From positions 5,640-69,639 of the forward strand of contig CAJXWP010000003.1 in the NCBI GenBank assembly GCA_913062625.1: DNA of 64,000 nucleotides. Reading direction: 5' to 3'. Below, piece by piece: positions 16,720 to 43,406 of the stretch; the stretch's first letter is position 1; each line of letters opens with the position of its first letter. The notes under the pieces were generated by a model that saw nothing but the letters and a program-made list of their open reading frames with translations, was not told the DNA's origin and did no database searches. Made by a program: the position numbers and the translations under genes. This DNA is from an uncultured Haliea sp. Lineage in GTDB: Bacteria; Pseudomonadota; Gammaproteobacteria; Pseudomonadales; Halieaceae.

Positions 16720-16739
16720 TACTGTACGTATATACAGTT
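16720..16739. promoter_or_regulatory. LexA (SOS) box upstream of imuA
   Basis: TACTGTACGTATATACAGTT matches CTGT-N8-ACAG (core 16722-16737). Confidence 0.9.
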
Positions 16740-16772
16740 TTTATGGGAAAGATAACTCCGAGGTACAGAACT

Positions 16773-17501
16773 ATGAATGCAATGCTAGAACAGATTATTA
16801 ATCGCAACGACACCTGGCGTGGGCGCCACCGCCACTTTCAGGATCAAAATATTTCAGCGAATAGCGATTGCAACGATTCTTCGGGTCTTGCTTCTGGCCA
16901 TACAGCACTGGATGCACAATTGCAGCAGGGGGGCTGGCCTCTGGACAGCACCATTGAACTGTTAAGCGACGGCTGCGGACTCGGTGCTATGGGTTTATTC
17001 CTGCCCGCCATGGAGCGCCTTAGCGATCAAGGCCGCTGGCAAGTATTTATCGCTCCACCCTACATACCCTACGCGCCACTTTTGGCCGCCCGAGGTATCG
17101 ATACACAACAGATTTTGATGGTCCATCCCAAGAATCGTAAGGAGCGGCTATGGGCGACCGAACAAGCTCTGCGCAGCACTACCTGCAGCGCCGTATTCAG
17201 CTGGCTAGGCGCGCAGGACTATAGTTACAGCGAACTGCGCAAACTACAACTAGCGGCCGCCAGCGGAGACAGCCTAGCCGTACTGTTTCGCCCCAACCAG
17301 GCACACCACAACAGTGCTCCCTCCAGCCTGCGCATGCAGATGCGTGAATACCGCAAAGTACATATCCTCAAGCAACGTGGCGGCAACCAATCCATTGATG
17401 TGGATTTATCCCCCGCAGCAGATGAGCCACTACAACCACAACTGTGGGAATTACCGGTCTGGACAGCGAGTAGCCAACACAGCTCTGCAATGAGCCTATA
17501 G
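16773..17501 (+). CDS. imuA: Translesion-synthesis protein ImuA
   Basis: GHTALDAQLQQGGWP, IAPPYIPYAP, LWATEQALRS, LRKLQLAA; SOS box upstream; ATG 16773 follows GAGG. Confidence 0.92.
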   Translation: MNAMLEQIINRNDTWRGRHRHFQDQNISANSDCNDSSGLASGHTALDAQLQQGGWPLDSTIELLSDGCGLGAMGLFLPAMERLSDQGRWQVFIAPPYIPYAPLLAARGIDTQQILMVHPKNRKERLWATEQALRSTTCSAVFSWLGAQDYSYSELRKLQLAAASGDSLAVLFRPNQAHHNSAPSSLRMQMREYRKVHILKQRGGNQSIDVDLSPAADEPLQPQLWELPVWTASSQHSSAMSL

Positions 17502-17608
17502 CCTGTGGCGACTTTGTTGCTCACGCACGCATTTTTATCGGCCCGCTATAGAAGCTGCAGGTTTCCTCATCACAGTCATCCCCACTGACCTGTCAGAGAA
17601 CGCGCGTA

Positions 17609-17914
17609 CTATTGTCCCGCAATGAGATTGGAGCGAATCTGAAATTCAATGACTTCGTCATTATAAACTTGAGAAAAATCTTCCAGTGTCGCGATCAAAA
17701 TCAGGTGCTGCTCAGGACTCATCACGCTGCATCCTATATAGGCCTCCGCACGCAGTAGGTATTTTTCCGCCGCCAGCTGGCCCCTGTACATTGCTTCATC
17801 GCTCGCGACTGCGCCATCAGGCAACACTGGCAATTCTCCCGGCCTGTTAACAGGACAGCCAGCAGAGGCATTGAATGCCAGACAGATCAGGACAGTCATT
17901 AATAACATTTTCAT
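17609..17914 (-). CDS. Small secreted hypothetical protein
   Basis: Signal peptide MKMLLMTVLICLAFNASA, then C-x-P...LPDGAVAS...YIGC; RBS-like GGGAG upstream. Confidence 0.75.
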   Translation of the reverse strand: MKMLLMTVLICLAFNASAGCPVNRPGELPVLPDGAVASDEAMYRGQLAAEKYLLRAEAYIGCSVMSPEQHLILIATLEDFSQVYNDEVIEFQIRSNLIAGQ

Positions 17915-18177
17915 CAGCAGATCTCCCGCTTGTAACTTTAAGTAACATTATTCAAAAAATATGTTACCACTATCTACCCATCTCATGGCTTCTGCAACCC
18001 TAACCTACACATTATTCATTGAATATGTCTCACAAATACTGGCCTAAAAAGTGATCCGAAGTCTTACTCCGCGCAATAATTTGTGTCATAAGGTAACAAA
18101 ATAAGAAAAAAGAGGCGTATCGGACACCACAAAAGGACCCCTTCGCTGACGCTGGACAGAGAAATAGATGCTAATAA

Positions 18178-18197
18178 TACTGTATATTTATACAGTA
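18178..18197. promoter_or_regulatory. LexA (SOS) box upstream of imuB
   Basis: TACTGTATATTTATACAGTA, inside a 30-bp inverted repeat at 18173-18202 (14-bp arms, TT centre). Confidence 0.92.
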
Positions 18198-18258
18198 TTA
18201 TTGATATTATAGCGGCCTTATCTTCGCCGGTTACAGGCCACTACTCGAGAACAAAATT

Positions 18259-19686
18259 GTGAGCCTTTGGCTGTGCCTGCGCTTTGACCAGCTCCCTCTG
18301 CAATGTCTGAGCCACTGTGAACAACAGCCAGTGGCTGTCATGGCCGCACAGCGCGTTATTCGTATCAATGACTGTGCCGCCGCCCTGGGAATATGCCAAG
18401 GCATGGGTGCTGCAACGGTACGGGCACTCGCCGGTGAAGAACCGATCCGCTTGCTGGAGCGCGACAAACAGGCGGAACAACGCTGCCTGCAACAACTATG
18501 CTGCTGGGCTTATAGCATCACTCCTACTCTCTATTCCTGGCAATTCGATTGTCTGCAGCTGGAAATCGGAGGCTGCCTCAGTTTGTTTCAAGGACTGGAT
18601 ACTCTGCTAGCAGAAGTAGCCGACGGCATCAGCAGCCGTGGCTATTGCGCACATCACGGACTGGCGCCGACGCCCAAAGCTGCCTGGCTACTGTCTTTTG
18701 CTCCCAGCGTCACGGCCATGGCAATACAGCAACCACTGGAGCAACGGCTGAGCCCCCTACCCCTCAATCTCCTAAAAGAATTCGCTGCCACCGTAGACTC
18801 TTTACGTCGGGCAGGCCTGCACACAGTGGGTGACGTGCTCGCACTACCACCTGCGGCACTGGGTCGGCGCTGCGGCAAAGCGTTTACCCATTTTCTACAA
18901 CAGCTTCTGGGGCAGCGAGAAGACTTACAGACAGACTATAAACCCCCCTCAAACTTCAACGACGAATACTGGTTTGGCTATGAAGTAAAAACTAATGATG
19001 AGTTAATCCCCGCTGTGCAACAACTGCTGCAGTCATTGTGTTATTTTCTGCGCAACACCCAACTGCAGACCAGCGAAATTAACTGGCAGCTAATCGGCAG
19101 TGATAAAAAACTGCAGAATATCTATGTGCGCAGTGCCAACAGCCACAGTGACTGGAAAAACTGGTACCAACTCACCTGCCTCCGCTTTGAACAACTGCAT
19201 TTGACCAGCGGCGTAGAAGGCCTGGCACTGGCCTGCCCGCAACTGCAACCTGGGCAGCAGGAAAGTATCGATCTGTTCAGCCCACACAACCAGCGTGAAC
19301 CTCTGGCGGCTCTGCTGGACAGGCTGCGCAACCGGCTGGGATTACAAGCCGTTAAAAAACTCGGCTGTCGAGACGAGCACCTACCGGAGCTTGCCATGTT
19401 GGTCAGCAACGACCACCCCGGGAATGAACACCGCGCCAGCCAACACTGCGCCCAGCGCCCCTTCTGGCTAATGCCGCAACCCAAAAAATTACGCCACCAC
19501 GGCAAAAATTTATACTGGAACGATGCCCTGAGCATGGTGTGCGGACCGGAACGAATTGAGGACAACTGGTGGCAAGAACCGGTAAGCAGGGATTACTACA
19601 TCGCGACAGATAAAAGCAACCAACGCTACTGGGTGTTTCGTGACCGCCTGACACAGCAATGGTATGTCCACGGAGTTTTTGCCTGA
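18259..19686 (+). CDS. imuB: Y-family polymerase-like ImuB
   Basis: LWLCLRFDQLPL, QLCCWAYSITP, LRRAGLHTVGD, RPFWL, C-terminal GPERIEDNWW...RDYY...WYVHGVFA. Confidence 0.93.
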   Translation: MSLWLCLRFDQLPLQCLSHCEQQPVAVMAAQRVIRINDCAAALGICQGMGAATVRALAGEEPIRLLERDKQAEQRCLQQLCCWAYSITPTLYSWQFDCLQLEIGGCLSLFQGLDTLLAEVADGISSRGYCAHHGLAPTPKAAWLLSFAPSVTAMAIQQPLEQRLSPLPLNLLKEFAATVDSLRRAGLHTVGDVLALPPAALGRRCGKAFTHFLQQLLGQREDLQTDYKPPSNFNDEYWFGYEVKTNDELIPAVQQLLQSLCYFLRNTQLQTSEINWQLIGSDKKLQNIYVRSANSHSDWKNWYQLTCLRFEQLHLTSGVEGLALACPQLQPGQQESIDLFSPHNQREPLAALLDRLRNRLGLQAVKKLGCRDEHLPELAMLVSNDHPGNEHRASQHCAQRPFWLMPQPKKLRHHGKNLYWNDALSMVCGPERIEDNWWQEPVSRDYYIATDKSNQRYWVFRDRLTQQWYVHGVFA

Positions 19687-19710
19687 AAGCGAGCGCGCTG
19701 TATCATGCGA

Positions 19711-20733
19711 TCAGTCAAACAACACAACCTCCTCAAACCGAGGCAGCACACTAAAGTGTAATTCAGGATTGTCGGCTGCCTTGTCATGCAGAAATAACAG
19801 GGTCTCTTCCTGCCCCCCAGAAATGAGAGCCACTGCCTGGACTGGCCCCCTAAACGGTCCTTCCGCCGACCCTGTGAGACTATCGAAATGAATGGGGATA
19901 ATATGCGTGGGTGCAGTGGCGTCCACTGTCTCGCGCCAGAACGTCTCGCGGTAATCCGCTGTTTGCGACCCCAAACCACCGACGCCAAGGAAGACAATAT
20001 CCGCGTCTAGACCCTGCAATGCGCCCTCCACATAACCCGCACTACCGACTATCAACCAACTTCCCTTGGGGTGACTGACATGCAGCACCCACGCGGTACC
20101 CACGCGGTAATCAAACACACGTACCGGCGGCACCAAAGGCACGGTAAGCTCTGGATTTCCTAGCGCACGCTCACGAATCGCCGGGTCGGGAAACTCAAAA
20201 TGTCGAGATTCAATCGGCGTAATCAAAAACTTCCCCAACTGCACAGGCTCGCGGTCTACCAAGACCTGTATCTGCGACTCGGGCAACCCCCATCCACGTC
20301 CAATATTGGCCGTGGACTCCGACCCTAGTAGTAACGCGCCAGTGCGCCTGGCAACCTCTGGCGCATCCATAGCGTGGTCATAATGAGAGTGCACCGGCAA
20401 CACCGCCGCCAATTCAACAACATGATTCTCCGTTAGACCCCGCTCTATGTTCGACAGATCTGGCGCAATTTTTCCCAATAACAAACGCAGGGGACCGGGA
20501 CGACTAAACCACCCATCAGTCATCCACTGTGTCTCGCCATCACTAAACAGCAAGGTCGCTGTGCCGCTAAAGCGCACCGTCACTGCATCCTCCGGTATAG
20601 AGTCGGCACCTAACACTGCCCACTCAGGCTCCACCGGTACCGGCGTGTAAATATTCAGGGCATAGACCAGAAACAGTGCCGAGAACAGAAAAACCAACAA
20701 TAACAGTGCAAGAACGCCACGCCGCAAGCTCAT
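19711..20733 (-). CDS. MBL-fold metallo-hydrolase, membrane-anchored
   Basis: N-terminal TM segment, DGWFSRP, HSHYDHAMD. Confidence 0.85.
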   Translation of the reverse strand: MSLRRGVLALLLLVFLFSALFLVYALNIYTPVPVEPEWAVLGADSIPEDAVTVRFSGTATLLFSDGETQWMTDGWFSRPGPLRLLLGKIAPDLSNIERGLTENHVVELAAVLPVHSHYDHAMDAPEVARRTGALLLGSESTANIGRGWGLPESQIQVLVDREPVQLGKFLITPIESRHFEFPDPAIRERALGNPELTVPLVPPVRVFDYRVGTAWVLHVSHPKGSWLIVGSAGYVEGALQGLDADIVFLGVGGLGSQTADYRETFWRETVDATAPTHIIPIHFDSLTGSAEGPFRGPVQAVALISGGQEETLLFLHDKAADNPELHFSVLPRFEEVVLFD

Positions 20734-20842
20734 AAAAAATACTCTAATTAATGCATTGGGGGGCAAGTTGCCGCAGCGCAGACAGCATGCCAATCAGATC
20801 GGGGACATCTATTAACCCTTCGTTTAATCAACGGGCTCAGTA

Positions 20843-21103
20843 CTACTTGAGAAACTGTGTCGGCTTTTCAATTTCATAAATTGCCTCAGCGATGTTTTCC
20901 ATGCGGCTTGCCAAGATTCCTTGGGCGTCATACAGACCCCGATTGTAAAAATAGGCTCCAATTTCCTCGGCAAAAAAATCTAACAGGAAACCAGCCTCGA
21001 ACTGGCCCACTTCCTGGTCGAGCTCCTCGTGCAAATAAAGCTGTATCTTGCGACAAATAATATCGCGTTCTTCACTTTTAAATGTAATTTCTGACATGGG
21101 CAT
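20843..21103 (-). CDS. DUF2164 family protein
   Basis: ELDQEVGQFEAGFLLDFFAEEIGAYFYNRGLYDA. Confidence 0.85.
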   Translation of the reverse strand: MPMSEITFKSEERDIICRKIQLYLHEELDQEVGQFEAGFLLDFFAEEIGAYFYNRGLYDAQGILASRMENIAEAIYEIEKPTQFLK

Positions 21104-21677
21104 CCTTGTAATAGATAAGTACTAAAAATTCGTTCTATGCTGTCCTGTATAAATTTTTATACCCGTGTTATCGCATTATTTTTTTCACTTTTTCTCATCT
21201 TTTTCTCTGCCATGTTGCAGCCAAAAAGCTCGCAGCGCCCTGATTGCTAGCCCGTTGTCTTCTCGCGATCTCAAGATTAACTCGCATACGATACGAACGA
21301 CAGATTGGCGATCATACACTTCTTTGCTTTGGAGCCTCTGATAAGGTCCTAATAGACGGAGATAGTGGCTAGCCCGCAGTCCTTGCAGACTAGAAGGACC
21401 TCAAGGCTTGTATAGTCGACCGCAGCAGCGTTCACATCTATAATTTTACAGGCAGCACCTACTGTGTTGGTGGGATACAACGAGCTCATTGCCGACTACT
21501 GCAAGGCCTCACAAAATCGTCTAGAACTTCGAGGTGAACTTCTCACTCTCAGGGCCCGACATATTTCATCAGAGACCTTAAAACGTGTACTGATGTAGGC
21601 TGCTGATCATTTTTTCTCTAGATAGTCTGCCACGTTTTTGCCATATTGTAGCATCAAGCTTCACAGCCAGCGTCTAC

Positions 21678-22925
21678 TCATGACTCTTTTTCAACCTGAT
21701 AGCTTTGCATATAAGCTTCAGCTTGCTTCTCTAGCGTTTCAGTATTCATGCCCCAGTCCTCTGGCAAGTACCGGTGTTTCCCATGCTTCCCTTTCGGCTT
21801 CTGAGCTAAATATTCTGTGATGGCATGCCGGTAATCTTGACTAAAGGGCTTTCCTGATTGGCGATAAACCCCTTCTAATGCTTTCACCGGGTCGCTCATT
21901 AAATCACTAAAATGTAAGTCGATAAAACGTTCTGGCAGTTCGCCAGCCTGTCTTCTGCGATACACATCCATCATCATGTCATTCCTAGCGTTACCCGCAA
22001 GCTCCAGCAACTGCTCTGAACCCTCTCTGTCACTGCGCATATAACGTGTAGCAGCAAAAGTAGACACGCCAGACGGTACCGTTTTTAGAGGGTCTCTGTG
22101 ATTCAGGATAATCCAAGCGTCAGGGTACATTGAAAATACCAAATCGAGCATTGGCAAATACGTTGGCGTTTTTAGTACCCAGTGCGGCACATTTTTACTG
22201 GCATGTTTTTTTCTATGCTCATACTGCATTAACTGCATAACGACTTTTTGGTATTTCATCGCAGCTTCGGGATCCATTGGGAATGTCTGTACATCATGAA
22301 GCACCCACCAAAGCATCCCGCCAAAGGAGGGTTTTTGAACACCGATACACTCGTCAGGAATGTCCGAACGCAACTCGTGAATGGCGGCCATTTGTGGACA
22401 GACATCCAGCCATAAATCCTGTTCACACTCCGTGAGGCGTAGCAACGTTTCTTCGTCACCCAAGTCATCGGTGGGGTGAAATGCCTTCCATGCGATTGGT
22501 GCTAGTGAGTCTGCATCCTGGCTCAGCAACTCAAGGGTAATGGAGGTGCCCGAGCGTCCTGTTCCCGTAATAATCAATGGCTCGATAATTTCTTCATTCA
22601 CGATTTCGGGCTGATCGGTAATTTTTTTAGTCAGATATAATCGGCTTTGCAAGCACCGTAAAATCTCTTGCCGTACTTGAAGGCGACCCATCACATTTAA
22701 ATCGGCTTCGGCGTCTAGGCTTGCGACCAAGCCTTCTAATCGGCCCCGCCAATCACCGTCAATTCGCTCCCCGAAATCACTTAATCCGGTGACGCGACGA
22801 CTCGCTTCAATCATTGCATTGGGCTCGAGGCTGATCAACTCGGCCGCACCGCCAACGGTATTAGCCATTAGATTAATCCGTTTGACTAAATCTGGACGCG
22901 GGAATCTTTCAGCAAGTGTTTTCAT
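21678..22925 (-). CDS. Sulfotransferase family protein
   Basis: PAPS-binding loop ITGTGRSGTS, WVLKTP, LNHRDP; ATG 22925 preferred. Confidence 0.88.
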   Translation of the reverse strand: MKTLAERFPRPDLVKRINLMANTVGGAAELISLEPNAMIEASRRVTGLSDFGERIDGDWRGRLEGLVASLDAEADLNVMGRLQVRQEILRCLQSRLYLTKKITDQPEIVNEEIIEPLIITGTGRSGTSITLELLSQDADSLAPIAWKAFHPTDDLGDEETLLRLTECEQDLWLDVCPQMAAIHELRSDIPDECIGVQKPSFGGMLWWVLHDVQTFPMDPEAAMKYQKVVMQLMQYEHRKKHASKNVPHWVLKTPTYLPMLDLVFSMYPDAWIILNHRDPLKTVPSGVSTFAATRYMRSDREGSEQLLELAGNARNDMMMDVYRRRQAGELPERFIDLHFSDLMSDPVKALEGVYRQSGKPFSQDYRHAITEYLAQKPKGKHGKHRYLPEDWGMNTETLEKQAEAYMQSYQVEKES

Positions 22926-23263
22926 AGTAGGCACACATTGGGTAAAAAGAAGACAACGCTGTGACCGCGTTGCCAAATGATATTCAAAATATACGGATTA
23001 CGGCCCGTCGTTACCAGAGCAGTCTGTCTAAGTTGACGATTGTTAACAATAACGCCTGTGGGAATCCTCTGGTAATCGCTGTACACCGACACCCAGCGCA
23101 ACATGAACCATCGATTTGCTTAAATAGACGCGTCGGCCATGTTTAGCCGGGACATTAGACTAATAATCTGGTCGCTCTCGGATATTCGTTGCCCAGCACT
23201 TGTTCTTGTTACCCTCGCCGGGCTATAAGCAATGTAATTTGTGATGCACAGCGATGCTAAAGC

Positions 23264-24628
23264 ATGAGCGAGATTTTTCATAACTTACCCCACGGTCTCT
23301 ATGAATGGGTGGAACAAAGTGGCGGTGGCACTATTACCCGCCTAGAACGGCACCTTGCGCGGAGGGAGGCTTGGGTGGTCGACATTACCGCACCCAACGG
23401 GAACGTGATGGAAGGCTTTCTCCGCTTGGACAGACATCCGGTGAAGGGTAGTGCAACCTCGCTCTACAAAGAGGCCATGATCTGTCAAGCGCTGGAGGGC
23501 ACTGATATCCCGGCGCCAAAACTGTATGCCTGGAGTGATGACCATTGCGCTGCGTTGCTTGCACGAGACGGAGGCCGCGCTGATATCGATAAGTTGGAAG
23601 ACACCGCACGTCAGCGGGCGATCATGCAGGACTTCATCAAAATCATAGCGCGTTTGCACCGTTTAAATACCGATACGCTTGGCCTTGATGAGGTGTTGGG
23701 CGCAAGACCGCAGACGGCGGCAGAGCTGGCGCTGGGCGATCTGGATCTGCAACTGCGTAATTTCAAGGGCTTTCTGGCGAACTACACTGATCCGCTGATG
23801 ACCTATGCGATCCAGTGGCTGCGGCGGCACGTGCCACAGGAGGTGCCGCAAATGGCTTTGGTTCAGGGCGACACCGGCCCGGTTAACTTCATGTTCCAGA
23901 AAAACAAAGTCAGCGTAGTGGTCGACTGGGAGTGGGGCCACTGGGGCGACCCAATGGAGGACCTCGGGAATATTTGTGTACGTGAATTCTGGAACCCCTC
24001 AGGCGGCCTTGATGGGCTGTTCAAACTGTATGAGCAGGAGTCGGGGCTGCCCTATCAGCGCTTTTCTGCGCAGTATTACCGCATTCAACAAAACGTGCGT
24101 GGAATGGTGCCGATTCACGCAGTTTGTGCCAGACCTCCAGAGCAGGAGCCTCTGGCGTGGTATCTGTGTTATCGCTATGTCACTGATCGGGCCACCTGCG
24201 AAGGCATAGCAGACGCGATGGGCATACGCATTGAGTGTCCCGAAATGCCCACCACGACGGTACCCGCCGACCTGCTCGTGAGCTCAGCCGCCGATAGCCT
24301 GCGCCGAGACGTTTTGCCACGGCTTGACAATGCTTTTGCCCGTTCACGAACTCAAGACGCAGCAAGACTTATTGAATGCCTAGACCGTCGCTTGCGGTTT
24401 AGTGCGACTTTGGATAACACCGAGCGCGAAGAAATAGGCGTATTGCTTAGACACCGTTTCACTGATGTGTCACAGGCACGCCAAGCGCTTGTCACCGCCA
24501 TTGACGCGCGGACGCTGGATGATGAACCGCTTCTGCAATATCTCGCACGCAAAGCCTATCGAGATGAATGGCTGTATGCGCCCGCTGTGGAGCTGTATCC
24601 GAATCGTCAGTGGTCAGCTCTGGACTGA
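23264..24628 (+). CDS. Aminoglycoside-phosphotransferase/choline-kinase-like phosphotransferase
   Basis: Brenner-like VQGDTGPVNF, DWEWGHWGDPMEDL. Confidence 0.85.
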   Translation: MSEIFHNLPHGLYEWVEQSGGGTITRLERHLARREAWVVDITAPNGNVMEGFLRLDRHPVKGSATSLYKEAMICQALEGTDIPAPKLYAWSDDHCAALLARDGGRADIDKLEDTARQRAIMQDFIKIIARLHRLNTDTLGLDEVLGARPQTAAELALGDLDLQLRNFKGFLANYTDPLMTYAIQWLRRHVPQEVPQMALVQGDTGPVNFMFQKNKVSVVVDWEWGHWGDPMEDLGNICVREFWNPSGGLDGLFKLYEQESGLPYQRFSAQYYRIQQNVRGMVPIHAVCARPPEQEPLAWYLCYRYVTDRATCEGIADAMGIRIECPEMPTTTVPADLLVSSAADSLRRDVLPRLDNAFARSRTQDAARLIECLDRRLRFSATLDNTEREEIGVLLRHRFTDVSQARQALVTAIDARTLDDEPLLQYLARKAYRDEWLYAPAVELYPNRQWSALD

Positions 24629-24755
24629 CACTCGCTTTTTCCGTTTGCAGGACTCGCCAAAGCGGTAAATCTTACTAAGTCTTAAAGCGGAAACCACCAA
24701 CCTATGCCGGTGCTGAGATTTGTACTACCGACGCTAGAACCCGCAGCAATACGTT

Positions 24756-25979: not shown

Positions 25980-26401
25980 GTTAGTGGTTCCCCTAACTAG
26001 TTAATAAATGTGATGCCCGGTCGCTTTTGAGTAGATCAAGATTAGGACGTGCGTCTCACCTTCACGGGAGAGAAAACTACGTTGCCGGAACGGAGGATCT
26101 TACCTGCCATTACAGGCACCTTTTACACCTCTCTTTGTTTTAGGTTATTACAATTATTCTGCAACCATTGCCGTGATAATTTCATACTTACATCAAAGTT
26201 AACTCGATCTTGCAGTAATGTTCCACATTTAGGCTCTGTCGCATCACACTTATATGATGCTGGCTCAATAAACTGTGATGATCGCATCCATGACGCGTCC
26301 TTAAAGGGTAAAAACATACCGCCTACCGAAAAATCAGCACCTTCTTTACCAGTGATCGCACACAAACCTAAGGCGACATTGCCTGACAGGCGATGTGCTA
26401 T

Positions 26402-26791: not shown

Positions 26792-26873
26792 TTCACTGTT
26801 TCCTATTTTTGGGTTTACTGAGGACTTATTTTTTTAACGCATGCTAACGGTAACACCGCCAAGCAACTGGCGA

Positions 26874-33935: not shown

Positions 33936-34322
33936 ATGTTCCGATGCGTGAGAATATGGACTGGCGATGATGACAGCTCCTTTTTCGAGGAGGGGCTGAT
34001 AGCGCTCAGTCCCGTGCCTGGCGGCGATTTTTTCAGCGACGAGTTGTCGGTGACGACCACGTCTTTTCGTGAGACGAGGCCCGGCGGCAAGCTGGCATGG
34101 CACACAGCGCCGGTGCGGCAGCTAGTCGTGACGCTGAGCGGGACCTTAGAGTTCGAGACGAGAGAAGGACAGCACTTTCAACTCGCGACCGGCGATGTGC
34201 TCCTGGCGGAGGACACCGTCGGTAGCGGACATTCCTGGAGGATCATCGATGACCAACCCTGGCGCCGCGTCTATATTGTGTTGGCACCAGATGCTTATGT
34301 CCCTTTCAAGTCTTTGAAATAA
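33936..34322 (+). CDS. Cupin-like protein
   Basis: WHTAPVRQLVVTLSG...GDVLLAEDTVGSGH. Confidence 0.82.
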   Translation: MFRCVRIWTGDDDSSFFEEGLIALSPVPGGDFFSDELSVTTTSFRETRPGGKLAWHTAPVRQLVVTLSGTLEFETREGQHFQLATGDVLLAEDTVGSGHSWRIIDDQPWRRVYIVLAPDAYVPFKSLK

Positions 34323-34373
34323 ATATTTAAATTTTTTACAATCTGCGCAGTACGACATAGGAAGGAGAAAGTA

Positions 34374-35870
34374 ATGAGCGAAGCCGCGACTGAAGAAGAG
34401 ATCGATGTGGCATTAGTCGGCGCAGGCATCATGAGCACCACGCTCGCGGCCTTTTTAAAAGAATTGCAGCCTCATTTGAAGCTTGAGATTCTAGAACAAC
34501 TGCCCGGAGAGGCTCAAGAAAGTTCGGGAGCCTGGAACAATGCCGGTACAGGACATGCGGCGAACTGCGAACTGAATTACACACCAATGAGCGCAGATGG
34601 CAGCATCGACATTGCGAGGGCGCTTGACGTTAACGTCGAATTCGATATGTCGCTGCAGTTCTGGTCCTATCTGGTCAAGAAGGGTGCAATACCCTGCCCC
34701 GACGAATTCATCCAGCCGGTGCCACATATGAGCTTCGTTATCGGTGAAGACAACCAAGCCTTTCTCAAGAAACGTCATGCCGCGATGAGTAGCCATCATT
34801 GTTACCACGGTCAGGAGTATTCCGAAGATCACGCAAAGATCGCGGAATGGACACCCCTGATTATGGAAGGACGCGACCCGCGCCAGCAGGTGGCGGCAAC
34901 TCGCACCATAACCGGTACCGACGTCAACTATGGCGCGCTCACGTCCAGCCTGTTGACCTATCTCCGGAAGCAGGATGATTTTAGTGTCCGCTTCTCTCAG
35001 TCAGTGGTCGACCTAGAACGTCGAGCAGGTGGAGGGTGGAGACTCTTTGTAAAGGATGAGATAACCGGCGCGCGACGTATCGTGAACGCGAAATACGTAT
35101 TCCTCGGAGCGGGGGGAGGCGCACTCCCGCTGTTGCAGAAATCTGGCATCCCGGAATCTAAAGGTTATGCTGGCTTCCCAGTGAGCGGACTTTGGCTGCG
35201 CTGCGGCAAACCGGAAGTGGCCGAGCGCCACAGCGCCAAGGTCTACGGCATGGCGGCCAAGGGCTCTCCTCCGATGTCGGTACCCCATCTCGATACCCGC
35301 ATCATAGACAACAAGCGCTGGTTGCTGTTCGGACCCTACGCAGGTTTTTCGACCCGATTCCTCAAAAATGGCTCTCTCTTCGATCTGCCAAAGTCAGTGA
35401 GGTTGGATAATATTCTGCCGCTCCTGGCGGTAGCGCGCGACAATTTCCCGCTAGAGGAGTACTTAATCGGACAGGTTCTGCAAAGCGCCTCGCACCGCTA
35501 CGACTCACTACGTGAATTCTACCCTGAAACAAATGTTGCAGACTGGGAAGTTGTGGTCGCTGGCCAACGCGTGCAAATCATTCGAAAAGATAAGGCGCAT
35601 ACCGGGAAACTCGAGTTCGGCACCGAAATCGTGCATTCCGCTGACTCTTCGATAGTCGCGGTATTAGGCGCATCACCGGGAGCTTCGACTGCGGTCTCGA
35701 TTATGGTCCACATGCTCGAGAACTGCTTTCATGAGCAACTCGTCGGCCACTGGGCGCCCAAACTAAAAGAAATGATCCCTTCCTATGGTCACGACCTAAA
35801 GACAGATGCCGCGCTATCTGCGCGCCTGCGCGCCGATAGCGCGGAGACCCTTAACCTGAGCAGGCACTAG
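34374..35870 (+). CDS. mqo: Malate:quinone oxidoreductase
   Basis: GAGIMSTTL, WNNAGTGHAANCELNYT, PPMSVPHLD, LGASPGAST. Confidence 0.95.
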   Translation: MSEAATEEEIDVALVGAGIMSTTLAAFLKELQPHLKLEILEQLPGEAQESSGAWNNAGTGHAANCELNYTPMSADGSIDIARALDVNVEFDMSLQFWSYLVKKGAIPCPDEFIQPVPHMSFVIGEDNQAFLKKRHAAMSSHHCYHGQEYSEDHAKIAEWTPLIMEGRDPRQQVAATRTITGTDVNYGALTSSLLTYLRKQDDFSVRFSQSVVDLERRAGGGWRLFVKDEITGARRIVNAKYVFLGAGGGALPLLQKSGIPESKGYAGFPVSGLWLRCGKPEVAERHSAKVYGMAAKGSPPMSVPHLDTRIIDNKRWLLFGPYAGFSTRFLKNGSLFDLPKSVRLDNILPLLAVARDNFPLEEYLIGQVLQSASHRYDSLREFYPETNVADWEVVVAGQRVQIIRKDKAHTGKLEFGTEIVHSADSSIVAVLGASPGASTAVSIMVHMLENCFHEQLVGHWAPKLKEMIPSYGHDLKTDAALSARLRADSAETLNLSRH

Positions 35871-36039
35871 CAATCTGCGTGCCCACGGTTCAATAATAAA
35901 GGGAATACAATATTCAAAAAATACCGACAAAGGCTAACAGTAGAAAAATTCTCCAAGGAGACATAAAGAATACCAAGAAAGAATGCTCCTGACGCTACCT
36001 TGAATTATAGACTGCGCATCATTGCCCCGCGTGGGCCAG

Positions 36040-36440
36040 TCACCCCCTTTGAAACCACTGGTACCAAAGGCTTTCAGCGGCTCTGTACCCTACAATGTAC
36101 CCTGAAGTAGCCAAATGTAACCTTAGGGCAACCATAAGACAGTGGACAGGGTGGGCTAGAAATACTACGGAGAGAATAGTGTCAGGTTCCCTAGATTATC
36201 TGGCTCCCTTAGTTGCCTCTGATTCCCAAGGTCTAGGGCTGCTGCCGAGTGCCCGTGTTACTCCGCGCCCTAGGTCAAAGGCCTGTTTATCTCGGCCCGT
36301 TTGAGGTGCCTTAGTATCCCAAGGGATTAAGGGCGCCGGGGGCGGGGCGGCGGACGCGCAATGTTTAGGGTAGCCCCAAGGTTTACTAGATGGTAAATTT
36401 CAGCAAACCAGCAAGCAAAACGGCTCTAGGAAAAGCCTAG
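36040..36440. mobile_element. Possible remnant end of an integrative element/phage (no integrase in the window)
   Basis: TGTACCC direct repeats at 12-bp period (36084, 36096), about a dozen CCTAG/CCTTAG/CCAAGG-type motifs and a G-tract; non-coding. Confidence 0.35.
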
Positions 36441-36597
36441 CTCGTCTCTGTGCGTTCGACAGTTCAGCAATGGACGGATGTAAATTTTCGATGACTGAGG
36501 CCGATAGGACTTCATAGTGATCAACCGGCTGCCCGCGATCTGTTCAGACCTTGTGGCTCGTATCCATAAGAAGACCTACTCACGATAGCCCTTTTAT

Positions 36598-37410
36598 TTG
36601 TCCTATACTTCTTTCAGAATTGTAATTTCAATCACCGGTAAAGAACTCTTGACTAAATATGTATATAACGACGATGAATCGATGATGCCCACGCTGTCAG
36701 CCATGCTGACTAGCCGCATGGGCGATGGCACCGGCAAACACGAAGCAGCCTATCTGAATACCATTGAGCTGTTAATAAATGCCTTTCGTGCTGGATCAAT
36801 GATCGACATTGGCTGTGGCATGGGTCGAATCACCCAGCTTGGCGCAGGCAAAATTGTCGAGCTGGTAGCCCTTGAGCCTGACGCGGCGAGATGCAATTGG
36901 ACGCGAGAACTAGTACTCGACATTCCAGGAGTGTCTGTCCTTGAATTAGCCACTAGTGACTTTATTGCGCAGAACCCGGACAAGACGTTTGATCTGTCGG
37001 TGTTGGGCATGGTGCTACAGCATATGCCTACAAACTATTGCCCAGGTTTAATGGAAGATGTTGCAACGCTTACTCGGCCTGGTGGTCTCGCTATCATTTC
37101 GACAACTCACGCGCTGGAGAAGGCAAAATGCTTTACCTACCAGGATGTGTCTGACGCGCGCGTAAGTGAGGAAGAGTTTAACGCCTACGCCTCAAAGACC
37201 GATGCACAAGACAAGGGCCTTCCTGTGCACCGCTTTTCACGCACCGAGTTGGAGGCACTGGTTCCCGACAGTTTCGAAATCGCACAGTGGACACAATATT
37301 CGTACTTTCGCCCAGAATTCCTCCAGCGATTTGCCAATGTGCATCAGGTTGAACCGGAGGAAATTGCGAACGTGGGCAATAGCCAGTTTCTGGTGTTGAG
37401 AAAAAAATAG
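36598..37410 (+). CDS. Class I SAM-dependent methyltransferase (start uncertain; TTG ~36649 possible)
   Basis: IDIGCGMGR motif I, VALEPD, LGMVLQH. Confidence 0.82.
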   Translation: MSYTSFRIVISITGKELLTKYVYNDDESMMPTLSAMLTSRMGDGTGKHEAAYLNTIELLINAFRAGSMIDIGCGMGRITQLGAGKIVELVALEPDAARCNWTRELVLDIPGVSVLELATSDFIAQNPDKTFDLSVLGMVLQHMPTNYCPGLMEDVATLTRPGGLAIISTTHALEKAKCFTYQDVSDARVSEEEFNAYASKTDAQDKGLPVHRFSRTELEALVPDSFEIAQWTQYSYFRPEFLQRFANVHQVEPEEIANVGNSQFLVLRKK

Positions 37411-37679
37411 CCAGGTGTGATATGCCACGCCATATACCGGCCCTGCTAAACAAATCCTGCTGAATTAGCCGCTCACTGTAAGTCGTCAGACCTTATGGAG
37501 CCAGTTGGCACTTCTTCTCAAAGACACTTTTCTGCCAGTCACTTCTCTACTCTAGCCTGCTCCCTGGAGCGATATAGAACACTCTCAACAGCCCCCGAGA
37601 TTTCTAAATCATTCATGTTCTTTTCAAAAGTTGCCTTCGCCTGCTCTTTAAATAGAAGCGATAGGCTCTGGGGGAGCCA

Positions 37680-38255
37680 TTATTTTGCGTCTGCTCGACT
37701 CAAAAACTTACGCTCTTCTACACTCACCTTTATGCTATCGCCGACAGAAATGTGTTCAGGCACCTGCACCGTTAACCCTGTCGATAGTAGTGCTGGCTTC
37801 GTTCTTGACGTTGCAGAGCCACCCTTGATTGATGGGTCAGTCTCAACCACTTCAAGCTCAACGTTAGAGGGCAAATCAAGCGCCACTGGGACATCGTTAA
37901 CCATAATGACATGGACGCCATTTGTTGACTCGTTAATAAAGAGAGCTTGATCGGCAATCGACTCTTTATTCAGACTGTATGGCGTATAGTCTCCAGTATC
38001 CATAAAGATATATTCATTGCCGTCAATGTAGGACAACATGACGGGTTTTCGTATAAGGTCTGCAAAGTTCAAAATATCTGAATCTTTAAACGTCTCATCA
38101 ATTTTGTTTTCAGTAACCACATCATACATACGCATACGGTAGATGCTGCCCCCTGCACGACCTTGCGGAACCGAACGCTCAATATCGCTGACCATATAGG
38201 TTTTACCGTTATAGTCGACGGCGGCACCTTTCTTGATTTCACTTGCCTTTGGCAT
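37680..38255 (-). CDS. efpL: EF-P-like protein EfpL (YeiP type)
   Basis: [41 protein letters not shown]; loop VPQGRAGG rather than KPGKG. Confidence 0.82.
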
Positions 38256-38319
38256 TTTCTCTCGTCCTAGTTTATGAAAACGTTAAAAATTCTATGCGCT
38301 TTCTAAAGTGCGTATTCCC

Positions 38320-39549
38320 TTAAGATCCTGCCTCTGCAATGCGGTCTTGCACACTCGTCAGCTGCGCTCGATCCGCACGTTGTTTCTCGACCGAGACCTC
38401 TTTGAGCACGTCACCCTCCATAGGCGCCTGCCGAAAGCCCGTGTAAACAACCTTCCGCGGGCGCGCGGTGGGCGGATAGGCGCGATGAAGCGTATCACTG
38501 CAATGCACCGTTAAGTCGCCCGTTTGCGTGGCCAACTTTATCACCGGTAAATCGAGACTGTCGTCTTTACCCGCGGTCTGAACATTGGCGCGATGGGAGC
38601 CCGGGACAACGCCGAGCGCACCGCTGCTTTCGTCCGCGCCGGTAACGGAGATGCCGATCGAGAGGCCGTTACAGTAGTAGGAGTGTTGTCCTTGCCCACA
38701 GTCCTTATGCCAGGGGAGATCCGAAAGACCGCTTTTAATGTCGAGTGGCTTGATCAGTCCCTCGGCGCCCAGCCAGCCAGCGCCCTTAGTATTACCACAG
38801 AGATCGTCTCCTGTGATATTAGAGAGCCACGATAGCCGATCGTCCTGAAGTAGGCCGCGCAACGCGGCGGATTGTTCTTGAAAAAATAGTACACGCACCG
38901 CCTGCTGCAGACCTTTCGAATCTCCCGCCCACCATGATGCTCCGTCGTCGGGACGCGCGCGCTCAAGGGCAACGTCGAGGTCGGCCGATACGGCGGCCAT
39001 CTCAGCTTCTGTGAAGACACCACGCAGATGTAAAAAACCAGCTTGGTGGAGAAAATGGGAGATCTCATCCCGGTCATCGTCACGTCCAAACGATCGACTG
39101 AGATCTAGGTCACGTCCGTCTCTATCGCTCAGCGTGATGGCGCCAGCTTCATGAACAGCGCGGCCGTCAAATAGTGCACGGAGCACCGGCTCCCAGCCAA
39201 TCCAATGCTCAAAACTGCCCTGAGTCATTTTAACGCGCGATTTCATCGCCAGTCCCATTGTTGTCGTCCAGTCCTGAACAAGATCCGAAAGACCATCGCA
39301 GTCAAGTTTTGCAGTCGCGCTGTCGGATGCATGGCCCGCTTCGATGCGCAGCGCGCCGCGCCGTTCACATAAAGTGACGGTGCGATCACCGACGCTAAGC
39401 GTGAGGGCTGGCAGATTTTTGTAGCGCAAGCCTCGAGCGGCGAGCTCGGCATTACGAGACAACGCTTCTGGAATCAGCAAGTCGAAGATTGCGTCTCGAT
39501 CACGTGGTTCTCGATCACGGTGGCGACGGGTGCGGCAATCGATAGACAT
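38320..39549 (-). CDS. Phytanoyl-CoA dioxygenase family protein with SCP2-like N-terminus
   Basis: WHKD (HxD), VVPGSH, GDLTVH...TLHRA. Confidence 0.82.
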   Translation of the reverse strand: MSIDCRTRRHRDREPRDRDAIFDLLIPEALSRNAELAARGLRYKNLPALTLSVGDRTVTLCERRGALRIEAGHASDSATAKLDCDGLSDLVQDWTTTMGLAMKSRVKMTQGSFEHWIGWEPVLRALFDGRAVHEAGAITLSDRDGRDLDLSRSFGRDDDRDEISHFLHQAGFLHLRGVFTEAEMAAVSADLDVALERARPDDGASWWAGDSKGLQQAVRVLFFQEQSAALRGLLQDDRLSWLSNITGDDLCGNTKGAGWLGAEGLIKPLDIKSGLSDLPWHKDCGQGQHSYYCNGLSIGISVTGADESSGALGVVPGSHRANVQTAGKDDSLDLPVIKLATQTGDLTVHCSDTLHRAYPPTARPRKVVYTGFRQAPMEGDVLKEVSVEKQRADRAQLTSVQDRIAEAGS

Positions 39550-39695
39550 TAAGTGACTCCTTATTTGCTCTACTAGGACACCACCAGAGGTGTCACTAGA
39601 GGGTACCTGCGCTGTTGCCGGATATTGTCAACAGTGTGTAATGCCTAAGTGGCCCTATCAGCCTGGCAATATTGGCGGGCATTTCTATACATCGC

Positions 39696-40046
39696 TTATA
39701 ACTTTACCCCAAAATAATTTAATACCGCCAGCATTAATAAGTAACACAAAGAGGTGAGACCGATTGATATTGCTATGGCCCAGTAAAAATGGAACTCAAG
39801 TTTCAGTAAAACCGGCAATGCCAAGAACAGTATTAACGAGGGTAAAACTAACCAAAAAATGCTAGATGACAGGTTGCTCACTTTTGTTGAGTCACCCGTA
39901 TCGATGTATAGCCAGAACATCGCCAACACCGAAACAAGCGGAATAGAGGCCAAGACGGCACCGATAAGAGAGTTTCTCTTGGAAATCTCTGAAATCGCCA
40001 CGATAAGAATGGTGGTAATCGCAATTTTTATGACGTAATAAATCAA
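39696..40046 (-). CDS. DUF3147 family membrane protein
   Basis: KIAITTILIVAISEISKR...LASIPLVS...FWLVLPSL; TTG 40046 follows GGAGG. Confidence 0.82.
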   Translation of the reverse strand: MIYYVIKIAITTILIVAISEISKRNSLIGAVLASIPLVSVLAMFWLYIDTGDSTKVSNLSSSIFWLVLPSLILFLALPVLLKLEFHFYWAIAISIGLTSLCYLLMLAVLNYFGVKL

Positions 40047-40282
40047 TTCATAGCCTCCACAGCTAAAACGCATAACGCCTACTCTGCCAACGGTCTGGGC
40101 GTCCCACGAGGTCCCGAAGTGTTTGAGTATAGGTGAGCCCCTTTTCTCATGCAAAACGGCCACCGGATTGTTTTTTTAGTGCCCGGCAATGCGTGTCTAT
40201 CTCGCATAATGGGAGATTTACGTGTGGCGCACAATTCACCATCAGATCAAAATTAATTCAATCTATTTGACAGAACCAATAA

Positions 40283-40302
40283 TACTGTATATTTATACAG
40301 TA
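40283..40302. promoter_or_regulatory. LexA box and overlapping sigma70-like promoter of dnaE2
   Basis: TACTGTATATTTATACAGTA, TTGACA at 40267-40272, ATG at 40305. Confidence 0.9.
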
Positions 40303-40304
40303 CT

Positions 40305-43300
40305 ATGTCAAGCTACGCCGAACTTCACTGCCTTAGCTGTTACAGCTTCCTTCGCAGTGCCTCTCATCCCCACGAATTGGTGGAGCGCGCCGCCGTACTC
40401 GGCTATCGCGCACTAGCAATCACGGACGAGTGTTCCTTTGCAGGGATAGTCAAAGCCCATGTGGCCGCGAAAGAAGCCGGTATCCAGCTCATCATTGGCA
40501 GCGAGCTGATATTGGAGGAAGGCATTCGGCTGGTAGTACTCGTGCCTACTCGGGATGCCTACAGCGAATTGTCCGGTCTGATCAGCATGGCTCGCCGGCG
40601 CAGCCCCAAGGGAGAATACCGCGTTACCCTGCGCGACGTAATATTCCACCTCAAACGCTGCCTTCTGATCTGGCTGCCTCAAGTGAATGACGAAAACAGT
40701 CGCGCCTATGGCCTGCAACTGAAGCGACTGTGCAAAGGTCGTCTGTGGCTTGGCGTCAATCATCTACTGGGTAACAATGAAGTACAGCGCTACCTCACAC
40801 TACAGCAGCTGGCCCAAGCATTGGATATCCCGATGCTAGCCTGCGGCGATGTGCGCATGCATACCGCCAAGCGTAAACCTCTGCATGATGTGTTTACCGC
40901 CCTATATCACGGCACCAGCATCGCTCAGTTGGGCCGACGACGCCTTGGTAATAGCCAGCAACACCTTCGCACTATCGACAAATTGCAATGGCTCTATCCC
41001 CCTGAATTACTGGAACAAACTCTACACATCGCCAGCCTCTGCAATTTCAGCCTGGATGAGCTGCGTTATGAATATCCCGAAGAGGTGGTGCCATCGGGTT
41101 ACCACGCTAACCAGTATCTGCGTGAGCTGGTGACGACAGGCTCAGATGCCCGCTGGCCCCGAGGTATCCCTATAAAGATACAGCAGAGCATCGATAAGGA
41201 GCTGGCGCTGATAGAGGAACTGCACTACGAATACTATTTCCTCACGGTATACGACATCGTACGCTTTGCCCGCTCACGCGACATTCTGTGCCAAGGCCGC
41301 GGCTCAGCGGCCAACTCGGTGGTGTGCTACTGCCTATTTATTACGGAGGTATCGCCCGAGCAGATATCTTTACTGTTCGAGCGTTTTATCTCCAAAGAGC
41401 GGGACGAGCCACCAGATATCGACGTGGACTTTGAGCACGAGCGGCGGGAGGAAGTGATTCAGTATATTTATGACAAGTACTCCCGCAAGCGTGCCGCCCT
41501 CGCCGCCACAGTCATCACCTACCGCTCACGCAGCGCGGTACGCGATGTAGGCAAGGCACTGGGGCTGGACCCGGTATTCGTCGACGACCTAGCAAAGTCT
41601 ATGGCGTGGTGGGATCGCTCGGCAGATCTCAACAAACGATTTGAAGAGCAAGGTGTCGCCAGCCACAGCCGGCAGGCAGAGCTGTTTTATTCACTAGTGC
41701 AACAAATCTTGGGCTTTCCTAGGCACCTATCACAGCATGTGGGCGGCTTTGTTATCACCCGTAGCCCTATCTCGACGCTGGTACCCGTGGAGAATGCCAG
41801 CATGGCAGAACGCACTATTATCCAGTGGGACAAGGAGGACATCGAGTCTATGGGACTGCTCAAGGTGGACATTCTAGCCTTAGGCATGTTGTCTGCCATT
41901 CGCAAAAGCCTACAGATGGTGCAGCGCTACTGTCCCACCATCAGAACGGTCAGCGATATCCCCAAAGACGACCAGTCCACTTACCGCATGCTGCAAATTG
42001 CCGATACCATTGGCGTATTTCAGATCGAGTCACGGGCGCAGATGTCCATGCTACCCCGACTCAAACCTGAGTGTTTCTACGATCTGGTCATTCAAGTCGC
42101 CATTGTGCGCCCTGGCCCTATTCAGGGCGATATGGTGCACCCGTATCTACGACGCAAACAGGGGCTGGAGGCTGCTACCTACCCCGACGACGCCATCAAA
42201 GAAGTGCTAGAGCGGACACTCGGCGTACCTATTTTTCAGGAGCAGGTGATCAAACTCGCAATGGTAGCGGCAGGCTTCTCCGGCGGCGAAGCAGACCAGT
42301 TACGCCGCGCCATTACCAGCTGGGGCAGAAACAGCAAGCTGCTAACTTTTGAAGAAAAGCTCACACAAGGCATGATCGAACGCGGCTACAGCGAAGATTT
42401 TTCCCGACGCCTGTTCGAGCAGATCAAGGGCTTCGGGGGCTACGGTTTTCCAGAATCGCACTCCGCCAGCTTTGCACTTCTGGCGTATATTTCCGCATGG
42501 CTCAAGTGCCATCACCCGGCCGCGTTTGTTGCGGGGCTGCTCAACAGTCAGCCTATGGGGTTTTACAGCCCCTCGCAGTTAATTCAGGACGCTCGCCGCC
42601 ACGGCGTCACCGTATTGTCTATCGATGTCAACCATAGCGACTGGGATCATCAGTTGCTAGACAGCCGCTTTGCACAACAGAACCAACCAGCGCTACGACT
42701 GGGCCTGCGCTTGGTCAGGGGCCTAAGCCGGCAAGGCGCGCAGAGAGTAATAGAAGCGCGACAACGCAACCCTTTTCGTCAAATCAGCCATTTGCGTCAG
42801 TGGGCTGCCCTGAACAAACGTGACATGGAAGCACTAGCAGATGCAGATGCTCTACAATCGCTGAGCGGACATCGGCATCAGTCTCAGTGGCAAATCATGG
42901 CACTGGAACAACCCAAACCCTTGTTACGCGATGAACAGTACCAGAACGCTAGTTACTTCGACGATGGCGTGCAATTGCCCGCACCACAGATAGCGGAGGA
43001 AGTCCTCTCAGACTACCGAGCCACCGGTCTCACTTTGCGTGCCCATCCATTGAGTTTGTTACGCGACCGCGCCCCTTTCAACCGCTGCAAGCGCCACACC
43101 GATCTAGCATCCATTGGACATAAACGTTTCGTGCGCATTGCAGGACTAGTCACCTGTCGCCAGCGTCCGGGAACTGCCTCGGGCGTTTTATTTCTTACTC
43201 TAGAAGATGAAACTGGCAACAGCAATATCGTAGTGTGGGAGCGAACACAGCAACACTTTCGCCAAGCGTTGATGAACGGAAAGCTGTTACTGATAAACGG

Positions 43301-43406
43301 CATTGTGGAAACTAAAGATAACGTCACCCATGTGATCGCCGGCGCTCTGTACGATTATTCTCATGAGCTGGGCAATTTGTCTGTACAGTCACATGACTTT
43401 CACTAA
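40305..43406 (+). CDS. dnaE2: Error-prone DNA polymerase DnaE2 (ImuC)
   Basis: YAELHCLSCYSFLR, GRGSAANS, PDIDVD, YGFPESH, QRPGTASG, C-terminal SHDFH. Confidence 0.97.
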   Translation: MSSYAELHCLSCYSFLRSASHPHELVERAAVLGYRALAITDECSFAGIVKAHVAAKEAGIQLIIGSELILEEGIRLVVLVPTRDAYSELSGLISMARRRSPKGEYRVTLRDVIFHLKRCLLIWLPQVNDENSRAYGLQLKRLCKGRLWLGVNHLLGNNEVQRYLTLQQLAQALDIPMLACGDVRMHTAKRKPLHDVFTALYHGTSIAQLGRRRLGNSQQHLRTIDKLQWLYPPELLEQTLHIASLCNFSLDELRYEYPEEVVPSGYHANQYLRELVTTGSDARWPRGIPIKIQQSIDKELALIEELHYEYYFLTVYDIVRFARSRDILCQGRGSAANSVVCYCLFITEVSPEQISLLFERFISKERDEPPDIDVDFEHERREEVIQYIYDKYSRKRAALAATVITYRSRSAVRDVGKALGLDPVFVDDLAKSMAWWDRSADLNKRFEEQGVASHSRQAELFYSLVQQILGFPRHLSQHVGGFVITRSPISTLVPVENASMAERTIIQWDKEDIESMGLLKVDILALGMLSAIRKSLQMVQRYCPTIRTVSDIPKDDQSTYRMLQIADTIGVFQIESRAQMSMLPRLKPECFYDLVIQVAIVRPGPIQGDMVHPYLRRKQGLEAATYPDDAIKEVLERTLGVPIFQEQVIKLAMVAAGFSGGEADQLRRAITSWGRNSKLLTFEEKLTQGMIERGYSEDFSRRLFEQIKGFGGYGFPESHSASFALLAYISAWLKCHHPAAFVAGLLNSQPMGFYSPSQLIQDARRHGVTVLSIDVNHSDWDHQLLDSRFAQQNQPALRLGLRLVRGLSRQGAQRVIEARQRNPFRQISHLRQWAALNKRDMEALADADALQSLSGHRHQSQWQIMALEQPKPLLRDEQYQNASYFDDGVQLPAPQIAEEVLSDYRATGLTLRAHPLSLLRDRAPFNRCKRHTDLASIGHKRFVRIAGLVTCRQRPGTASGVLFLTLEDETGNSNIVVWERTQQHFRQALMNGKLLLINGIVETKDNVTHVIAGALYDYSHELGNLSVQSHDFH

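Follow-up and report, generated by a model that had tools for sequence, protein, structure and literature searches.

How does a set of genes stay within one regulon once the operon that held them together has been broken up? The question is raised by three genes, imuA, imuB and dnaE2, in a stretch of 64,000 nucleotides (nt) of DNA from the bacterial family Halieaceae (the window: positions 5,640 to 69,639 of contig CAJXWP010000003.1, assembly GCA_913062625.1). These genes encode the ImuA-ImuB-DnaE2 mutasome; in the window they are kept apart by other genes, and each is preceded by a box of the type associated with LexA and the SOS response. The window belongs to a fragmented assembly of Halioglobus (3.07 Mb, 117 contigs). 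The three genes were located in 81 Halieaceae genomes from 40 genera and their coordinates compared; about 60 loci were retrieved and LexA boxes were mapped relative to the gene starts. We infer, with a probability of roughly 80%, that the window carries three LexA-repressed transcription units with their own sigma-70-type promoters, and that the split is ancestral in Halieaceae. What the analysis adds is a comparison across the family in which boxes come and go with the transcriptional isolation of the genes, which makes this family a natural experiment on how a regulon survives the break-up of an operon.

Predicted operators and promoters of the three genes

Judged from its sequence, the window holds a complete ImuA-ImuB-DnaE2 mutasome in the usual order and on one strand. 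The imuA gene (16773-17501, plus strand) encodes a RecA/SulA-like accessory protein of 243 amino acids, which matches the NCBIfam equivalog NF033429 (207 bits, compared with a cut-off of 150) and also Pfam SulA. The imuB gene (18259-19686, plus strand, GTG start) encodes 475 amino acids; its match to Pfam IMS is weak (31.7 bits), and it aligns over residues 1-475 with orthologues in the family, which are full length in 73 of the 81 genomes. Its orthology is clear when compared with ImuB genes of the family that adjoin imuA. The dnaE2 gene (also imuC; 40305-43406, plus strand) encodes an error-prone polymerase of 1033 amino acids, which matches NF004225 at 1396 bits (cut-off 939) from residue 2 to 1033 of the protein and 4 to 1047 of the profile. 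The match is full length, PHP, pol3 alpha, finger, HHH and OB domains are present in the protein, and models for the replicative DnaE score under their cut-offs. A preliminary description of this DNA had called all three reading frames full length, and the family profiles and orthologue alignment agree.

A pattern search found four CTGT-N8-ACAG sites in the window, compared with 0.87 expected, and recovered the box that the preliminary description had placed at each of the three genes. Candidate operators were scored as 20-mers by their mismatches to the consensus TACTGTATATATATACAGTA; the imuA operator matches at 17/20 positions, with the imuB and dnaE2 operators both matching at 19/20. At imuA, the operator TACTGTACGTATATACAGTT (16720-16739, core 16722-16737, plus strand) overlaps the predicted promoter P_imuA (16697-16739, plus strand), which is made up of a -35 hexamer TTGCAT (16697-16702), a 17-nt spacer and a -10-like TACTGT (16720-16725). 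The core lies 35 nt upstream of the ATG, and this geometry (cTTGCATT-N-TACTGT with 17-nt spacing) is conserved in 12 genomes of several genera. At imuB, the predicted promoter P_imuB (18153-18202, plus strand) combines TGGACA (18153-18158) with the -10-like AATACT (18176-18181), and the operator TACTGTATATTTATACAGTA (18178-18197, core 18180-18195, plus strand) is embedded in a 30-bp palindrome (18173-18202), with its core 63 nt upstream of the GTG. The arrangement cTGGACA-17-AATACT, with a box about 63 nt from the imuB start, is conserved in most of the genera in which imuA and imuB are split. At dnaE2, the predicted promoter P_dnaE2 (40267-40302, plus strand) has TTGACA as its -35 hexamer (40267-40272) and a candidate -10 inside the operator, which is again TACTGTATATTTATACAGTA (40283-40302, core 40285-40300, plus strand). 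The core ends 4 nt, and the 20-bp operator 2 nt, ahead of the ATG; the pattern TTTGACAG-N-box-ATG, with 3-4 nt from core to ATG, is kept in seven genera. Consensus-like promoter hexamers that are conserved between genera overlap all three boxes, which are predicted to be canonical gammaproteobacterial LexA operators placed over -10 regions.

The motif is taken to be the SOS box of this host because a double box, the presumed site of lexA autoregulation, is also found directly upstream of a canonical lexA reading frame (C26:10354, spanning C26:10354-10400), the product of which has a helix-turn-helix N-terminus, an AAG cleavage site, and GDSM and KRL motifs. That the three boxes are not LexA operators, but AT-rich palindromes that arose by chance in the promoters, is scarcely credible. 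Intergenic DNA is indeed AT-rich, and one of the four matches in the window (3410-3425), which is intragenic and has a GC-rich spacer, was set aside as probably due to chance. However, the whole 3.07-Mb genome has just 50 CTGT-N8-ACAG sites, and the three operators fit the 20-bp consensus better than nearly all of the others: the top four consensus-like 20-mers in the genome are those at dnaE2, imuB, lexA and imuA. The boxes are also kept at orthologous positions in dozens of genomes despite diverged flanks, and the chance of finding boxes in all three of the given 100-nt upstream intervals is about 4e-9. Another good box is located at C52:22155, about 180 nt from the end of its contig, and the recA and recX genes open contig C70 (C70:2-1072), with recA running from base 2; this box may be the recA operator, lying across an assembly gap.

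Boxes and transcriptional isolation across the family

The occurrence of boxes was compared with the arrangement of the genes. In the comparison of coordinates, imuA and imuB were counted as separated when more than 600 nt apart, and genomes were informative when both genes were on one contig; an imuB box was scored as a perfect-core CTGT-N8-ACAG within 300 nt. A box precedes imuA in every primary-cassette locus with a readable upstream region (about 50; G001, in which imuA is truncated, was excluded). At imuB, a box is found in 34 of the 37 genomes in which the gene is split from imuA, compared with none of the 11 in which the two are adjacent, and one further split genome has an imuB box with one mismatch. 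Where dnaE2 is split from imuB a box is present in all 36 genomes checked. Eight of these have the box of an adjoining integron integrase gene (intI), and in the others the box is that of dnaE2 itself; for example, in G018 and G069 the box for dnaE2 stands before an integrase gene that abuts it. The dnaE2 genes of contiguous second cassettes have a box in 0/3 cases. Along with the re-fusions described below, which are box-less, these counts support the proposal in the preliminary description that the regulation was built anew once the operon had broken up, with LexA control apparently re-established at each gene.

The two true exceptions at imuB, G047 (L099) and G069 (L100), have the order imuA-DUF2788-macro domain-imuB on one strand, with a stop/start overlap at imuB and no imuB box. 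In these genomes a macro-domain gene (ADP-ribose binding or hydrolase) may be embedded in an SOS operon. They also show that long transcripts from imuA to imuB exist in the family, and so bear on the possibility that imuA and imuB in the window share one transcript, with P_imuA reading through the small gene that lies between them and the imuB box being redundant or serving that gene. The gap is just 757 nt, and no strong intrinsic terminator was found 3' of imuA in the window. Nevertheless, a single transcript seems unlikely. Read-through would be antisense to the intervening gene, which is encoded on the other strand. The box is fixed at about 63 nt from imuB across genera, although the divergent neighbour varies (the small exported protein or DUF885), and in the window it is 265 nt from the ATG of the small gene. 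Furthermore, the imuB box has gone exactly where imuB has re-joined imuA, in G078.

That genome provides an observation of its own: in G078 (L087), imuA and imuB are 14 nt apart and imuB has no box, and the congeneric sister G035 (L088) has a 3.7-kb insert and a box. It looks as if a deletion in G078 re-fused the operon and took the operator away.

Several points weigh against a reading with three independently controlled units. The genomes are related, and p-values from Fisher tests (p = 1.6e-8 for the imuB comparison of split with adjacent genomes) and Mann-Whitney tests overstate their independence; the number of independent events is small, at about 1-3 box gains and 2 losses. The -10 element of dnaE2 is ambiguous, being either TATATT (15-nt spacer) or TATTTA (17-nt spacer). 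Following imuA there is only a weak hairpin with a U-run (-10 kcal/mol, z = -0.2), and some read-through from P_imuA, antisense to the small gene, may enter imuB.

Age and origin of the split layout

The preliminary description had suggested comparing synteny across Halieaceae, and the comparison of 81 genomes places the split well beyond the window. The order imuA > imuB > dnaE2 on one strand is nearly universal. Of the 62 informative genomes, 46 (21 genera) have imuA separated from imuB, with gaps in the family ranging from 0.13 to 30 kb, and imuB and dnaE2 are apart in all 38 collinear cases, by 0.7-60 kb (median 8.9 kb). The split with separate boxes that had been noted here is real, although it is not an event of this genome and appears ancestral to a large clade of Halieaceae. 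On a maximum-likelihood tree of ImuB, the adjacent, box-less state is found in basal lineages and in one clade of seven genomes, and the split-plus-box state extends over a clade of 28 genomes that includes the window. Box-less re-fusions are nested within the split clade (G078; G047 with G069). Because the promoter sequences are homologous between genera, the three-unit layout is judged to be old and vertically inherited.

Contiguous cassettes are present in the family only as divergent second copies: G005, G019 and G073 (L031-L033) have a second imuA-imuB-dnaE2 cassette with a single box. The ImuB proteins of these cassettes are 34-36% identical to the resident ImuB, and the cassettes were probably acquired horizontally.

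It could be argued that the layout is peculiar to this metagenome-assembled genome, with the 20.6-kb gap between imuB and dnaE2 being a recent mobile insertion or the split a mis-assembly. The assembly is fragmented, the G + C content of the gap is slightly lower than that of its flanks, and the length of the gap varies within the genus (18, 21 and 52 kb). This explanation is extremely unlikely, given that the order, strands and boxes, along with most of the gap genes, recur in the complete genome of Halioglobus sp. Uisw_031 (G046), in which the gap is 18.3 kb. The concern about an assembly artefact that accompanied the preliminary description is therefore not borne out, and the metagenome-assembled genome G010 is also identical to the window in order, strands and boxes. 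Neither an integrase nor a tRNA is present in the gap, which also lacks attC sites and flanking repeats, and the separation of imuB from dnaE2 in every collinear genome, along with a metallo-beta-lactamase (MBL)-fold gene that recurs next to imuB, likewise argues against a recent event in one genome.

The identity of the imuB and dnaE2 operators raises a further possibility, that the dnaE2 promoter was copied from the imuB promoter in a duplication when the operon broke. A 25-bp sequence, AATAATACTGTATATTTATACAGTA, is indeed identical at 18173-18197 and 40278-40302. However, in G046 and G010 the imuB operators have the AATAA and TTATT flanks in common and differ in their spacers (ATGTATAT and ATATATAT), while the dnaE2 operator is ATATTTAT in the window's genome, G046 and G010 alike. 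The -35 regions are separately conserved (TGGACA at imuB, TTTGACAG at dnaE2) and the distances to the start codons differ. A duplication is very unlikely on these grounds and was rejected; the most plausible explanation of the 25-bp identity is that point mutations made the two operators converge on the consensus.

Predicted induction and translation

In the proposed mechanism, the insertion of an opposite-strand gene would have parted imuA from imuB, and that of a flexible gene island imuB from dnaE2; each isolated gene would have stayed under SOS control by means of its own box. On DNA damage, RecA-stimulated cleavage of LexA would de-repress P_imuA, P_imuB and P_dnaE2 together. The operators are of unequal quality: their mean mismatches in the family are 2.58 at imuA, 1.65 at imuB and 1.34 at dnaE2 (imuA compared with dnaE2, p = 1.7e-8, a value subject to the same relatedness of genomes), and in the window imuA has three mismatches, with imuB and dnaE2 having one each. 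In E. coli, stronger LexA operators lead to later induction. By this rule, and because its operator deviates more from the consensus, imuA is predicted to be released earlier, or at lower levels of damage, than imuB and dnaE2. The consistently weaker imuA operators fit staggered induction with imuA first, and speak for the separate stoichiometry or timing that the preliminary description had proposed. The predicted order agrees with that measured in Myxococcus xanthus, which serves as an experimental precedent. Two points count against this order, namely that mismatch counts are a crude proxy for the affinity of LexA, and that imuA in several relatives has two overlapping boxes, which could tighten repression. 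Such overlapping boxes, with a 15-nt offset, are seen in many relatives (e.g. L016, L018, L019, L024, L038), and imuA in the window has only one box.

At dnaE2, the operator abuts the start codon (40283-40307), so that a Shine-Dalgarno sequence would not fit in between; the position of the start is certain from the conservation of the N-terminus. As the operator ends 2 nt from the ATG, the dnaE2 mRNA is probably leaderless, or nearly so. Cultured Halioglobus are a possible system for studies of a staggered supply of ImuA relative to ImuB and DnaE2, and of the translation of leaderless dnaE2.

The imuB-dnaE2 gap and integrons

The preliminary description had placed about 20.6 kb of accessory genes between imuB and dnaE2, and the distance is 20,618 nt. 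This flexible gap (19687-40266) contains approximately 20 unrelated genes, as judged by Pfam and NCBIfam matches. An MBL-fold hydrolase gene (19711-20793, minus strand) directly follows imuB and recurs in 26 loci, being the only gap gene widely conserved next to imuB. The others include genes for a sulfotransferase, an APH-like kinase, DUF1214, an alkyl sulfatase, a cupin and VF530, as well as a glyoxalase, Mqo, a methyltransferase, PhyH and PRK09272. Most are common to the window and mainly G046, with 77-95% amino acid identity. The gap shows a mild dip in G + C content (0.45-0.51, compared with 0.52-0.55 in the flanks). At the other extreme, the smallest imuB-dnaE2 gaps in the family contain one opposite-strand lipocalin gene.

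In many relatives this locus carries an integron. Of the 29 family genomes with an integrase match over the cut-off, 16 have an integron integrase (TIGR02249, about 420 bits compared with a cut-off of 265) directly 5' of dnaE2 and on its strand; intI is 1.3 kb upstream of dnaE2 in G044, and a broken copy is 1.5 kb upstream in G022. For example, in G018 (L107 9578-10901), G069 (L108) and at L110-L114, L118 and L119, a box is followed by the integrase (421 bits) and then by dnaE2, with 0-40 nt to the dnaE2 start. In eight genomes the sole box precedes intI, giving the order LexA box - intI - dnaE2. A literature search found no paper that describes this pairing of intI with dnaE2.

To locate attC sites, a covariance model (R1) was built from 34 Halieaceae attC sites, and it gave 105 matches in the loci of relatives. 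Arrays are found upstream of intI: in G044, the interval from imuB to intI-dnaE2 contains about 65 sites, which extend over 27 kb (L121 10356 to L122 17676), and large arrays occupy the same interval in G011 (L109, L129) and G069 (L123). The cassettes have the opposite sense to intI, as in canonical integrons. Traces of integrons are also found: G003 and G027 have relic attC sites without intI, and relics of the IntI C-terminus are located about 100 nt 5' of the dnaE2 box in G050 (L039; LLGHEDVTTTQIYTHAVGRGALGVVS) and G016 (L016; WGVISPLDD*). The presence of these IntI relics in G050 and G016, with no intI at that place, indicates that the integron was lost there secondarily.

In the window itself an integron was rejected. 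The gap was searched for an integrase, tRNA, flanking direct repeats and repeat families, with none being found; TIGR02249 has no matches in the window's genome, and tblastn with four IntI proteins from the family gave only noise in the window. Model R1 has no matches in the 64-kb window (E <= 0.1) or in the gap of G046, and a regex-plus-fold search of the window found no attC sites. A candidate relic of the IntI C-terminus upstream of P_dnaE2 ('EIY...SPSD*') was also dropped, since tblastn and blastn gave nothing significant beyond the promoter and box. The window thus shows an integron-free form of the locus at which many relatives have an integron. Elsewhere in its genome, four attC sites form a cassette cluster on contig C39 (C39:20993-23153), unlinked to the mutasome and with no detectable integrase.

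These observations allow a broader proposal, which is tentative and rather doubtful: that the three-promoter layout is a selected design of a Halieaceae 'evolvability locus' and not mere debris of operon decay, that graded operators order the induction of the genes, from the weak operator of imuA to the near-consensus ones of imuB and dnaE2, and that sedentary chromosomal integrons dock preferentially in the slot 5' of dnaE2. If so, an integrase co-transcribed in many relatives with dnaE2 from one box would lead to point mutagenesis and cassette shuffling being co-induced, and the window would be the integron-free state of the locus, with a leaderless dnaE2 directly under its own operator.

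Comparison with known systems

The layout is already documented in kind in other bacteria and other phyla, and in this respect the window alone is confirmatory. The preliminary description stated that imuA-imuB-dnaE2 is usually one LexA-controlled operon, which understates the variety recorded in a review (PMC3901139) and in a study of Myxococcus xanthus (bioRxiv 10.1101/2020.12.14.422803). The review reports that imuABC genes are found in nearly every arrangement, among them imuA, imuB and imuC at distinct loci that all have SOS boxes, and that cassettes stay under LexA control once they have split (PMC3901139, summarising Erill et al. 2006). Here the three units are not dispersed but collinear, on one strand and within 27 kb; Halieaceae are not named in the passages of the review on split cassettes. 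The window does not have the single LexA-controlled operon of the canonical ImuABC cassette and fits the documented split variants.

A close parallel is in M. xanthus DK1622, in which three independent promoters differ in the times and strengths of their induction, with imuA induced 1 h after ultraviolet irradiation and imuB and dnaE2 later (bioRxiv 10.1101/2020.12.14.422803). As in the window, the genes are in the A-B-E2 order, with dnaE2 split off by unrelated cistrons (6.57 kb in M. xanthus). Its SOS boxes are at imuB and dnaE2 and have a deltaproteobacterial motif, whereas here CTGT-N8-ACAG is found at all three genes and, unlike in M. xanthus, an opposite-strand gene separates imuA from imuB. 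In Mycobacterium tuberculosis, too, LexA controls two or more loci and dnaE2 does not adjoin imuB, according to the review (PMC3901139); there, ImuA' replaces ImuA, the LexA motif is another one and imuA'-imuB is still an operon, which is split here. The lexA2-imuA-imuB-imuC cassette of Pseudomonas putida encodes the equivalent three proteins under LexA control, as outlined in the same source (Abella 2004, cited in PMC3901139), but forms one transcription unit and has a dedicated LexA2, in contrast with three units and no second lexA at the locus here. The integron-bearing relatives within Halieaceae share the three-unit mutasome, P_imuA and P_imuB of the same type and the collinear order. In them, LexA box - intI - dnaE2 makes up the third unit and an attC array takes up part of the gap, whereas in the window dnaE2 has its own promoter and there is no intI or attC.

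Neighbouring genes and further observations

Upstream of imuA is holA (DNA polymerase III delta; 15624-16634, plus strand; TIGR01128, 296 bits), a conserved neighbour that also precedes imuA in 17 related loci. The start of imuA is placed at ATG 16773, which has GAGG in front of it and gives the N-terminus MNxxLEQI, both of which are conserved in relatives; the start at ATG 16743 given by the open reading frame tool is not conserved and was rejected.

The opposite-strand gene between imuA and imuB, reported earlier and confirmed here, encodes a small exported protein of 101 amino acids with a signal peptide (17609-17914, minus strand) and is convergent with imuA and divergent from imuB. Its product has no Pfam or NCBIfam match. 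Homologues that are 36-85% identical are present in the equivalent position at 29 loci, which identifies it as a real gene. It is the separator of imuA and imuB in the window's genus, and its position immediately upstream of imuB, in divergent orientation, is conserved in several genera. In other relatives, the imuA-imuB gap contains a same-strand OsmC-like gene and DUF2788, followed by an opposite-strand DUF885, with the small exported protein found instead in the window's genus and a few others.

ImuB itself may be a Y-family homologue without the N-terminal pair of catalytic aspartates. The protein starts LWLCLRFDQLPL, and, as read from the sequence, has LCLRFDQLPL where DinB-type enzymes carry DxD. 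QESIDLF, read in the same way within ...QESIDLFS, is a candidate motif for clamp binding. Finally, an OsmC-like gene is found 3' of imuA and on the same strand in 14 genomes (e.g. L019, L022, L027, L040), where the LexA-controlled promoter of imuA probably drives both genes.

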